Shown here: one piece after another, positions 1 to 4,637 of the stretch
Numbering within the stretch: position 1 is the stretch's first letter
Layout of the letters: each line of letters starts with the position of its first letter
Assembly (NCBI GenBank): GCA_950072105.1
Contig: CATMOE010000028.1
Coordinates: 1-45,781, forward strand
Source of the DNA: an uncultured Dehalococcoidia bacterium
GTDB taxonomy: Bacteria; Chloroflexota; Dehalococcoidia; Lucifugimonadales; UBA3495
Reading direction: 5' to 3'
DNA: 45,781 bases
The notes under the pieces: model-generated
Database searches by the model: none
Told to the model about the DNA's origin: nothing
The model's input: the letters and a program-made list of their open reading frames with translations, nothing else
Made by a program: the position numbers and the translations under genes

Positions 1-1597
1 AGTCTTGGATAAACTTTACCGAGTCTTCGACTTTCTCTTCGATCACGTGGTCCTTGCATGCCAGCAATATTAGGACAGACTCAACCAAGCACGTTTTTAG
101 GGTCTCGAGCTGGGTAGCCACAACAGATGAAGCAATATTTTCTTGCACTAACTGTCTGATCTCGACGTAAAAACTCATTAATCGTGTTCTGTATAACTCA
201 AAAGCCCCCAGAGCGTCACGAAGAGAGTCCGCTATCTGCATGGTTGGATCAACGTCCTCTTGTGACAAGTCTTCTTCCGAGACTTTAATTTTTAGGTCTG
301 TAAGCAACTGAACTTTGGTTTCACAGCACTTGCCCAAGGCTTCGATGGATTCTTGCACGGCGGACTCATTGGTAACGTATAAGCCAAGAACCTGATCAGG
401 ATCCTCCAACAAATTTTTTAGGCGTTGTTGGTCATCCTCGCCTAAGATTCGCGGCACCAAAAGACGAGCATCTTGCTCTATTTTTGTGATCACTGAGACT
501 TGCTTTGACAAAAATTCAGCAGGATTAAATTCTTCAGTAGTTTTGTCGCTAGTATCCTTAATCGCCTGCAACTGCAGCTCTGTTAAAGCCTGACCACACA
601 ACGCACAGATTGGTGATTCTTCATTTACTAATGGGATCCCCCTGCGGGCTATATCAACAAGTTCACGTTCTCGGGCGATGTCCTGACTATGTTTGTGGTT
701 TAGAAGATCAGTTCCACACGTGGCTATACCTGTTTCAAGTTCGCTTATTTTGACAGCGATAGACTCGAAGTTTTCTTGAACCTCTTGGTCCAACCCTAGC
801 TTCGCAAAGTCAAACGTTCTGGCAATTACGTGATTCATTTCAGAACCAATTTCAATTATTTCGGCTCCCTTATCGTCGGGCAACTCCTTATCGAATAACG
901 TCTTGAAAACTGAAGATATAGCTGACTGAAATGTGGTTGGGGTAAACCCTTCGTTTTCAAGTTCGTCCTTTATCGGGCTCATATCGGGCACAGTAGAACA
1001 AAGCTCGATGAGATCGGCTCGAAGGGTTTGTCCTTTTGAGATGTCTTCGGGCTTCGTCTTGAAGCTCCTGCTGGCGTTTTGAATGCTGGCTTGTAGAGCA
1101 TTCAGTGCTCCCATACCGAGTTGGGCGCTTATCAAGCTGAACCGCTCGGCAGGTTTAGCAAACACGAAGTCTCTAATCCCATGCTGGAGAATCAAAGGAT
1201 GCCTGACTTCGCCGGATACTCCCAGGGCAGAAAGGTCATTCACTTGATTTCCGTCAACATAGAGAACACCAGGGCCTTCTTCCTGGTCTATTACACGTTT
1301 TATCTCTACGTCGTTACTATCGTTGTAGAGATAAAGCGTAACGTAAGCTTCTGAATCCGCTGGATAATGCCGGTTACGAAGAGAATGCTCAAATTCCCTT
1401 TTTTGTATGTCCCTTTCCCCGCGAGTCCTACGTGTATTATTTCCATAAATTGCCCATTCAATCGCCTCGCATAAGGAAGATTTCCCATGACCATTTGGTG
1501 CGTATAGTAAGACGAGGGGATTGTCCAAAGAACAATATTGGATGTCATTGAATCCTCTAAATCCTGCTACCTCAATACCTTTTAGTCGATAATTCAT
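1..1597 (-). CDS. Rad50/SbcC-like (SMC-family) ABC ATPase, 3' end outside the window
   Basis: Manual translation: MNYRLKGIEVAGFRGFNDIQYCSLDNPLVLLYAPNGHGKSSLCEAIEWAIYG. It has the FRG motif, a Walker A, a Q-loop-like LILQHGI and a zinc-hook-like CALC at residues 331-334 (596-607), with coiled-coil-like flanks. The frame is open for 532 codons to the window edge. The ATG overlaps the upstream stop (ATGA). Confidence 0.88.
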   Translation of the reverse strand, partial: MNYRLKGIEVAGFRGFNDIQYCSLDNPLVLLYAPNGHGKSSLCEAIEWAIYGNNTRRTRGERDIQKREFEHSLRNRHYPADSEAYVTLYLYNDSNDVEIKRVIDQEEGPGVLYVDGNQVNDLSALGVSGEVRHPLILQHGIRDFVFAKPAERFSLISAQLGMGALNALQASIQNASRSFKTKPEDISKGQTLRADLIELCSTVPDMSPIKDELENEGFTPTTFQSAISSVFKTLFDKELPDDKGAEIIEIGSEMNHVIARTFDFAKLGLDQEVQENFESIAVKISELETGIATCGTDLLNHKHSQDIARERELVDIARRGIPLVNEESPICALCGQALTELQLQAIKDTSDKTTEEFNPAEFLSKQVSVITKIEQDARLLVPRILGEDDQQRLKNLLEDPDQVLGLYVTNESAVQESIEALGKCCETKVQLLTDLKIKVSEEDLSQEDVDPTMQIADSLRDALGAFELYRTRLMSFYVEIRQLVQENIASSVVATQLETLKTCLVESVLILLACKDHVIEEKVEDSVKFIQD

Positions 1598-1794
1598 TGT
1601 TCATTCTTCCCGTCAGGCAGTGTTCTACGACATACTTCGAGGTAGTTTTCTATAGCCTCCTGGGTTGGTGAATCTACGTAGGCTTGCAGTAATTCGAGGT
1701 GGAGCCCTTCAGGTAAGCCAGACATGAACTCAATCAAGATAGGGTCAATTGAGGGATCTTCCAAGGGTTCCGGATCTATGGGTTTATCTTCCAT
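1594..1794 (-). CDS. Small acidic hypothetical protein (66 aa), coupled to the ATPase
   Basis: ATG start; its TGA overlaps the ATPase ATG; same AT-rich composition as the ATPase gene. Confidence 0.65.
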   Translation of the reverse strand: MEDKPIDPEPLEDPSIDPILIEFMSGLPEGLHLELLQAYVDSPTQEAIENYLEVCRRTLPDGKNEQ

Positions 1795-1935
1795 TTAAAC
1801 TGCTCTCACGCCACTTCGAGTCGAGGATTGTTTAACTTCCGGACAACTTAAGGTGGCAAAGCGTTCTTACCTTAAAGTTACTCACCGGGTCCAGCGGCGT
1901 GATAGTTTAAACGACGGTTACTTTCGCCTAGGTTT

Positions 1936-1965
1936 CGGACCCACGCCTGTTCAACAGGCGGTCCG
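1936..1965 (-). terminator. Hairpin downstream of grdA (possible terminator)
   Basis: CGGAC..CGCCTGTT-C-AACAGGCG-GTCCG inverted repeat about 20 nt after the grdA stop; weak U-tract. Confidence 0.45.
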
Positions 1966-1985
1966 CATCCTACGGGCTTCCAGCC

Positions 1986-2441
1986 TTATCTTCCCCGCAC
2001 CTCTTTAATCGCCCTGGCAATCTCTTCAGCGTCCAAAGCGATGTCGGCCAAGCCTACTTCCAGGTCGTAGGTGGCCGAGTCAATCTGTTCTTTGATCTCC
2101 GGTTCGGTGATGTGGTAGGCCGGGAGGCCCAGGGCCTCTCCTGCCAAAGCTCCGGCCCACGAGGGGTCGCCGTCGGTGACGGTGGTGGCGTAGAGCTTGG
2201 TGCTTTCGGGGGTGGGGGTGCCCAGTAGGACGACGAGGTTGTCGGTGCCTATCTGGTCTACGATCCGTTTGATATCTTCTTGACCCTCCAGGTCAAGAGC
2301 GCCGGCGGCGGTTCAAACGAAACAGTGGGTCATCTCCAAGACTACTTCCGCTCCGGAGCTGCGGGCGCAGTTGGCGATGGCGGTCCCTTGGACCCCGTCC
2401 CGTTCTCCCAGAGCGATTACTCTCATACCTTTGAGTTGCAT
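1986..2441 (-). CDS. grdA: Glycine/sarcosine/betaine reductase selenoprotein A (Sec at codon 43)
   Basis: SD AGGAGG, then [54 protein letters not shown]...GDPSWAGALAGEALGLPAYHITEPE...RGR*. [13 protein letters not shown].DLE and GDPxxAG are GrdA motifs. In-frame TGA at 2313-2315; 151 aa on read-through; adjacent to grdC. Confidence 0.93.
2278..2298 (-). promoter_or_regulatory. Candidate bacterial SECIS hairpin in grdA mRNA
   Basis: mRNA UCUUGACC-UGGAG-GGUCAAGA: perfect 8-bp stem with a G-rich loop, starting 14 nt after the UGA. Confidence 0.65.
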
Positions 2442-4115: not shown

Positions 4116-4637
4116 ATGAAGAGACCCACAATCACGGCCGCGCTGGTCTTGCTCATGTTGCTGACGTTGTTCGGCCACGGGGACACGGTGCAGGCACAGG
4201 TCACCTGTACCGGCCACGCCAGGAGTTTGGGCTGGTCTTATTATGGGACCGCCGGAGGCGATCTGATCAACTGCCGGGGCTCAATTGCCGACGTTGTGAT
4301 TTTGGGCCTGGGCGGGAACGACATCCTTATCGGTGGGCAGGGCAACGATACGATCTTGGGTGGTCCTGGCGAGGACTTCTTATTCGGCCGGGGTGGCAGG
4401 GATTTTCTAAGCGGCGGGAGCGAACGCGACCTTCTTTTTGGGTCCAATGGTGGAGACGTTTTGGTTGGCGGCTCGGGAAGAGACTCCCTCATCGGCAGTA
4501 ACGGAAACGACGTTCTTTACGGCGGCCCAGATGACGACACCTTGTTCGGAGGCCCGGGAATAGACATTTGCGATGGACAGGGAGGCTCCGATGACTTCGC
4601 GGCGTCTGATTGCGAAGGCACTCCCAACGTCCCATAA
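4116..4637 (+). CDS. Small secreted protein with RTX/hemolysin-type Ca2+-binding nonapeptide repeats
   Basis: N-terminal signal peptide (VQA-Q), tandem GGxGxDxL repeats, Cys residues flanking the repeats; SD GGAG. Confidence 0.85.
   Translation: MKRPTITAALVLLMLLTLFGHGDTVQAQVTCTGHARSLGWSYYGTAGGDLINCRGSIADVVILGLGGNDILIGGQGNDTILGGPGEDFLFGRGGRDFLSGGSERDLLFGSNGGDVLVGGSGRDSLIGSNGNDVLYGGPDDDTLFGGPGIDICDGQGGSDDFAASDCEGTPNVP

Follow-up and report, generated by a model that had tools for sequence, protein, structure and literature searches.

What does a Rad50/SbcC-type zinc-hook ATPase gene do at the very end of a contig, directly behind a small acidic ORF and with no nuclease gene in front of it? We studied this question for the window, i.e., the whole 45,781-nt stretch of contig CATMOE010000028.1 (here C28; assembly GCA_950072105.1, an uncultured Dehalococcoidia bacterium). 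A first-pass annotation had read the pair as a horizontally acquired module with the layout of Lamassu or ABC three-component systems. We find a conserved two-gene cassette that belongs to neither RloC nor Lamassu by the features tested and that probably serves as a self-destruct defence, so far undescribed, against invading DNA.

The locus

The features of the locus are listed in Table 1. The ATPase was found as first described, that is, with a Walker A motif, with a CxxC at residue 331 (CALC, its only CxxC) and open to the window edge, which is the first base of C28. The overlap with the small acidic ORF was borne out as well, and so was the low GC content: the two genes have 0.447 and 0.463 vs. 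0.576 for the genome, and their third-position GC is 0.44-0.45 compared to 0.70-0.72 in two neighbouring genes. Upstream of the pair lie grdA, with an in-frame TGA read as selenocysteine, and grdC. A scan of the locus for promoters and terminators stayed at chance level. A contig of RNA run X15 spans 1033-1961, although contigs as such cannot show transcription. The small ORF is on record on 178 contigs, and the runs holding the stretch are marine.

Table 1. Coordinates of the ATPase gene fragment, its upstream partner and flanking features within the window.
Feature	Position	Strand	Remark
ATPase, 5' 532 codons (of ~806 aa)	1..1597 (ORF 2-1597)	-	Rad50/SbcC-type zinc-hook ABC ATPase
Small ORF, 66 aa, acidic, three-helix	1594..1794	-	conserved upstream partner; candidate stand-alone Mre11-type Rad50-binding HLH
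ATGA stop/start overlap	1594..1597	-	couples small ORF and ATPase (sequence)
Walker A APNGHGKS, codons 33-40	1478..1501	-	K invariant in 81/81 relatives
Zinc hook CALC, codons 331-334	596..607	-	both Cys invariant in 81/81 relatives
IS junction, codon 213	958..958	.	metagenome loci L010-L012 switch into the presumed IS3-type element; depth step in X2
Second IS junction, codon 53	1438..1438	.	locus L013
Non-coding island leader	1795..1975	.	congener similarity stops at ~1975-1993
grdA, selenoprotein A	1986..2441	-	core-genome flank outside the module; Pfam GRDA 3e-53

Two further elements were observed in the flank. Between grdC and grdA (2457-2512), a short hairpin-forming, REP-like repeat is found, of which the source genome and its congeners hold dozens of copies. 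The 173-aa protein encoded at 4116-4637 starts with a signal-peptide-like segment and contains calcium-binding nonapeptide repeats (Pfam HemolysinCabind) as its only domain.

A two-gene island broken by an insertion sequence

A leftward extension of the contig, as had been proposed, meets the contig end at position 1, but the 3' part of the gene was found elsewhere in the assembly, namely on contig C13, by tblastn with the C-termini of full-length relatives. Here, C13:62950-63411 (minus strand) encodes 154 residues from the H-loop to the stop with 68% identity to these C-termini. That is, the fragment, which lies outside the window, holds the last 155 ATPase codons (H-loop and HEPN-like domain); about 121 codons including the signature and Walker B are absent from the assembly. 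At the contig end, the fragment borders on a terminus of an insertion sequence, an element with two ORFs (integrase-core and transposase HTH domains) that we take to be of the IS3 type. Core sequence is back at C13:62807 (a grdE-like gene for the glycine reductase B subunit), about 140 bp past the ATPase stop. Since the core grd cluster resumes at this short distance, the island consists of two genes and the effector gene that had been suspected beyond position 1 is absent.

A single contig of run X1 spans window positions 1-2003 and extends 391 bases further, close to the 362 bases expected to the insertion site with a 31-mer overlap added, and thereby supports the C28-C13 join, short of proof. 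Four near-identical metagenome loci enter the other end of the same element, three of them at 958 and one at 1438, and the contig depth in run X2 is 87 over 1-987 vs. 548 upstream. We infer a single insertion near codon 652 with subsequent adjacent deletions. The source genome's copy of the cassette is a pseudogene, interrupted by the insertion sequence. The small gene has remained whole.

The cassette is missing from both congeners (2/2), for which the similarity ends just past the grdA stop and restarts at the gene that sits at the C13 end in the source genome. Congener G001 carries a different insert at the same site after grdA (L155:2619-3221), with a 201-codon frame that has two in-frame TGA three codons apart (UxxU if read as selenocysteine), a signal-peptide-like start and no Pfam match; its product is a candidate redox protein with two selenocysteines. 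The stretch following grdA is possibly a hotspot for insertions. In the source genome, termini of the presumed IS3-type element are found at the ends of C1, C4, C8, C10, C13, C14, C33, C37, C43, C54, C59 and C64, and its two ends occur in 7 and 11 copies, which points to recent expansion.

The small ORF and the ATPase form a conserved pair

For the search, an 81-row ATPase alignment was used (mean column identity ~27%; best 80 of 569 confirmed genome loci, with 8 more in the phylum). The core set comprises 30 members, i.e., 29 loci above 400 bits and one contig-cut fragment at 300, and full-length ATPase relatives have about 800-840 aa (e.g., P0007 with 42% and P0009 with 36% identity). The family carries the complete set of ABC motifs. 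Three core loci are without upstream DNA and were left out of the pair count. In the other 27, the neighbourhood survey that had been suggested gave a uniform result: an acidic ORF of 48-72 aa precedes the ATPase in 27/27, of which 25 are whole and overlap the ATPase or end just before its start, 1 is cut by the contig end and 1 is displaced by a transposase. The net charge is negative in 27/28 small proteins.

Since the small ORFs were chosen by position, their homology was checked with leave-one-out profiles, from which rows of at least 40% identity were removed, against a background of ~7,100 ORFs. Here, 21/28 small ORFs rank first and 14/28 score at E<0.001. The window's 66-aa ORF, held out of the profile, is at rank 1 of the ~7,100 background ORFs (E 9.5e-5) and thus exceeds chance expectation at the sequence level. 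Among 598 ORFs, the three highest scores belong to the held-out small ORFs of one viral contig and two plasmids (L140, L157, L158). As a control, 1,286 frames were scored from 22 loci (RloC, Lamassu, SbcC and other ATPases), and the best E was only 2.2.

Related hook ATPases show other arrangements. A sister family (L042-L095, L100-L104), common in Actinomycetota and Chloroflexota, combines the HEPN-like tail with a fused, helical N-terminal extension of ~60 aa. This extension may be the fused counterpart of the small protein, a reading without support from the profile comparison (probability 0.3% vs. 54 rows of the extension). A third group near the core family in the head tree (L059, L063, L098) has frames of ~910-970 codons with an N-terminal extension of 80-90 aa and lacks a small gene in front. 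Another SMC-like ATPase family, of ~700 codons (L002, L003, L005), occurs in three genomes of the host's family and matches in the Walker A region only.

A HEPN-like tail as candidate effector

The family extends ~120 residues past the H-loop. Within this tail, Arg719 is present in 80/81 and His778 in 81/81 rows of the alignment. Pfam DUF4145, which is classed as a HEPN family (PMC3710099, in excerpt), matches 4/24 tails (best 1.5e-8), the other 20/24 are without a HEPN model match and the source genome's own tail is without a match in Pfam or PADLOC. When compared to 8 RloC tails, the 81-row tail profile yields E 2.7e-4 and a probability of 42%, and the Arg and His line up; the 24-row profile yields 3%, and the comparison with one RloC tail yields 0.7%. 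Among PDB sequences, no HEPN match was found. One of the tail's neighbours in language-model space is an abortive-infection C-terminal cluster (0.92). Given these profiles, we are quite confident that the tail adopts a HEPN fold.

Whether it would cut RNA is a more delicate matter. The His of the Rx4-6H motif is present in 81/81 rows, and an Arg 4-7 residues before it is found in 8/81 and missing in 73/81 as well as in the source genome's copy. RNase activity is nevertheless plausible, since HEPN families are described that are without this Arg but keep the His and another basic residue (PMC3710099, in excerpt); we rate the chances of such an activity as even. Because the relatives carry the HEPN-like domain fused to the ATPase, this domain is likely the effector by sequence, with no separate effector gene.

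The small protein and the Mre11 helix-loop-helix

An AlphaFold2 model of the 66-aa protein shows three helices (18-25, 31-41, 45-58; pLDDT 77). In a structure search over 48,161 chains, yeast Mre11 444-503 is found at rank 2 (Z 4.0, rmsd 3.5, 53 aligned residues), with a Z that is tied with unrelated helical hairpins and under the level the tool calls meaningful. The idea of an Mre11 HLH predates this search. According to the excerpted sources, the Mre11 HLH at residues 442-507 holds the Rad50 coil (PMC11661359), and a 43-residue HLH together with the Rad50 head is sufficient for DNA binding (PMC3258140).

Sequence comparisons gave no such link. The small-protein profile has a probability of 0.7% vs. 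30 SbcD tails, which is below unrelated windows; no match was found in PDB sequences, and none of 8,000 longer proteins scored. ESM Atlas provided no useful match (best 0.82), and neither did Foldseek with re-alignment. The small protein and two of its homologues are without a PADLOC or Pfam match, so the proposed PADLOC check came back empty for them, LmuC models included. No LmuC chain is among the 50 structural matches listed, and the small protein may yet be structurally related to LmuC. Given the tied Z and the failed sequence tests, the Mre11 match is a lead. Going by the structural model, we somewhat favour that the small protein binds the ATPase at the root of its coil.

Relation to known systems

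The source genome's housekeeping SbcC is encoded at C15:18203-20788 (861 aa, divergent from ffh, no sbcD beside it) and its sbcD at C6:64664-65449; in the kin set, sbcD is present in 34/40 genomes. The first-pass annotation was right in that grdA and no SbcD gene lies upstream of the pair, but the argument drawn from it is weak, since the genome's own sbcC and sbcD are unlinked and a missing adjacent sbcD is therefore not diagnostic here. A housekeeping SbcC was rejected as identity of the window's ATPase, given the copy on C15 and the separate clade of the window's gene.

This clade was placed in head trees of 47 and 44 rows (9 rows skipped by the head-cutting rule, 3 more left out later). 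RloC, SbcC, short LmuB and the sister family with N-terminal extension form supported groups apart from the core family, with no settled order of the deep nodes: neither a grouping of the core family with RloC (p-AU 0.095) nor one with SbcC (p-AU 0.051) is rejected. The 10 RloC heads form a 100/100 group without the core family and short LmuB are also separate with 100/100, while the lone long LmuB, the only one found in three samples with 251 genomes, sits on a long branch with unstable placement. Clustering with vertically inherited SbcC or RecN at a conserved locus, together with a small ORF not conserved beside homologues, had been named as refutation; since the clade is separate from SbcC and the small ORF is conserved, this refutation fails.

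With SbcCD/Mre11-Rad50, the family has in common the zinc-hook ATPase and a partner whose size, position and predicted fold recall the Mre11 HLH; the solved structures closest to the ATPase are SMC and Rad50 heads. In contrast to SbcCD, the family is without a phosphoesterase domain and an LSGG-type signature, has a DD instead of a DE Walker B and an extra C-terminal domain, and is sporadic rather than vertical.

Lamassu is defined by LmuA, LmuB and LmuC (PMC12663957, in excerpt), where an origin of LmuC from the SbcD C-terminus is proposed (section 11 therein) and effector-less clades exist (section 5). Long Lamassu resemble the family in that a small gene directly precedes a single-hook ATPase of 800-1000 aa with hhhhDD Walker B (section 5). 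This long-type Walker B and the single CxxC are present in full-length relatives (the Walker B region of the source copy is unassembled), and the sampled long LmuB (L164) has DDPVQSMD and SEAQxN (Walker B and signature) in common with the family. However, it ends just after the H-loop where the family adds its tail, and Lamassu's LmuC of 150-164 aa (the sampled one with 150 aa and an MComp1 match) contrasts with the much shorter partner of 48-72 aa. Lamassu furthermore has a separate LmuA effector, while the family has none and its effector is likely fused to the ATPase. LmuB models are also the best PADLOC matches, with 1.9e-20 for the fragment and up to 5e-33 for full-length relatives vs. 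1e-111 to 1e-145 (four of five matches, one model) and 2e-131 (other model) for true members. Membership in Lamassu was rejected, as no LmuA is linked in the two-gene island and no LmuC match was found. The suggested Lamassu/ABC three-component layout is therefore unsupported.

RloC (Pfam AAA_13) is an anticodon nuclease, marked by excision of the tRNA wobble nucleotide. It is described as lone mobile cargo that is rarely linked to restriction-modification (R-M) and as an internally silenced hook-ATPase-nuclease (PMC3458546, in excerpt). Like RloC, the family has an ABC head, coiled coil, zinc hook and C-terminal HEPN(-like) tail in one polypeptide, which for the family is known from sequence profiles only. 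It differs by its low AAA_13 (RloC) scores of 24-38 bits compared to 367-611 for true RloC, by the small upstream gene that RloC loci do not have, and by the mostly absent Arg of the Rx4-6H motif. RloC membership by head clade was rejected, since the family lies outside the RloC (AAA_13) clade.

ABC-HEPN fusions are known, i.e., ABC ATPases of which some carry a HEPN tail (PMC3710099, in excerpt). Among these, APECO1_4465 and ERFG_01251 are likened to the family by description only. PADLOC's PDC-S06 models match the ABC motifs of the family only (best 4.9e-11), and the PrrC model matches over 50 residues with 1.9e-6. The literature searched, including the accessible parts of 10.1101/2024.01.29.577857 and PMC10586767, yielded no description of the pair; the ABC ATPase classification of Krishnan et al. 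2020 may list the clade.

Distribution and neighbourhood

None of 59 relatives has an orthologue of the ATPase (matches there are short N-terminal ones or SbcC, at best E 2.4e-8), and 400 genomes of the phylum provided 2 further core members. Core loci occur in Chloroflexota, Pseudomonadota, Bacteroidota, Actinomycetota, Armatimonadota, Omnitrophota and others as well as in four archaeal groups. Family copies are also present on two plasmids and one viral contig, while no match was found in 50,697 phage records. This distribution, together with the site that is empty in both congeners, agrees with the horizontal acquisition that had been claimed, and a horizontally acquired, mobile cassette with sporadic occurrence in bacteria and archaea is supported by sequence comparison.

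The neighbourhoods of 29 loci were surveyed within two genes (102 neighbours; greedy ORF picking, raw counts without a background rate). No third gene recurs among these neighbours and no nuclease partner lies upstream of the ATPase in any of the 29 loci. R-M genes adjoin 6/29 loci and integrase, recombinase or transposase genes also 6/29, with one locus having both. A toxin-antitoxin pair is found by 1/29 and sbcCD downstream in 1/29; 17/29 are without R-M genes, mobile genes or a toxin-antitoxin pair. ATPases that are split, truncated or hit by an insertion sequence were observed in 5/26 fully covered core loci and in one plasmid copy, some of which may be assembly errors. Such repeated broken copies are expected if the gene is costly.

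Proposed role and alternative explanations

We consider a defence role of the cassette likely, judged from its sequence. For the more specific reading as a self-contained abortive defence, in which a Rad50-type sensor with fused predicted HEPN RNase is joined by a coil-root partner, the balance tips slightly in favour. The cassette's mode of action is likely that of RloC, supplemented by the small partner. The zinc-hook ATPase would act as a sensor of DNA that is foreign or broken, with its dimer loading onto DNA ends or replication intermediates; DNA ends as trigger are suggested by analogy with RloC and Lamassu only. Head engagement would then join two tails such that RNA is cut and the cell stalls. 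The 66-aa partner may clamp the coiled-coil root, as the Mre11 HLH does, and either lock or license the activation of the tail. That the pair marks a third, minimal route from SbcCD to immunity, in which SbcD was reduced to a gene for a ~60-residue Rad50-anchoring HLH and the sensor gained a fused non-canonical HEPN RNase, is a tentative and rather doubtful proposal.

The rarity of the Rx4-6H Arg can also be explained by a tail that is a catalytically dead HEPN-like scaffold, such that the pair binds DNA or recruits a nuclease in trans (host SbcD or R-M enzymes) as anti-plasmid or accessory defence. The R-M genes next to 6/29 loci and the effector-less Lamassu clades (PMC12663957, section 5) fit this explanation. 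Yet the other 23/29 loci are without an R-M neighbour, the His is invariant and the N-terminal Arg present in 80/81 rows despite the low mean column identity, and HEPN families without the motif Arg but with His and another basic residue are described (see above, PMC3710099), which makes a dead tail unlikely. Somewhat less probable still is a small protein that acts as plain type II antitoxin plugging the HEPN active site, with no coil-binding Mre11 remnant involved. It is what one might read from a coupled, upstream and mostly negatively charged product of 48-72 aa without sequence link to SbcD, and from locus L028, where an insertion sequence sits between the genes and the ATPase is damaged too. 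Against it stand the rank-2 structural match to the Mre11 HLH, the position of the small gene, which is where LmuC and the SbcD C-terminus precede their ATPase (PMC12663957, section 11), and the internal silencing of the similarly built RloC (PMC3458546).

An accessory DNA repair or recombination ATPase that travels on mobile elements with no defence role is improbable: the similarity to SMC and Rad50 heads and the SbcC grouping left standing by the head tree agree with it, but the 29 loci are without an upstream nuclease partner (sbcCD lies downstream in only 1), the host genome encodes an SbcC and an SbcD of its own, the toxin-like tail is conserved and inactivation is repeated. We give the least credit, and very little of it, to a Lamassu or ABC three-component system whose LmuA was lost or is encoded elsewhere. 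The LmuB models as best PADLOC matches and the Walker B and signature resembling the one long LmuB sampled would be accounted for, whereas the far higher scores of true members, the closed two-gene island without a conserved third gene, and the different ATPase end and LmuC of the sampled long Lamassu contradict it.

Implications

If the defence role of the cassette is true, it adds an unannotated two-gene family from many phyla and both prokaryotic domains to prokaryotic immunity; such systems, whether in bacteria, in archaea, on plasmids or on viral contigs, would have escaped both PADLOC and Pfam. Intact pairs are found, for example, in L097 and on plasmid NZ_AP024517.1 (WP_213539971.1 with WP_213539970.1); copies in cultured environmental strains, such as those of a Nitrosospira plasmid and of Dyadobacter Leaf189, are directly testable. 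In the source population, the nested insertion junctions within one marine population are a natural record of cassette loss. The family bears on the conversion of repair ATPases to immune sensors. If true, the minimal route with an SbcD remnant would have its place between SbcCD, long Lamassu and RloC, and the family may hold the smallest remnant of the SbcD C-terminus, with the effector on the ATPase.
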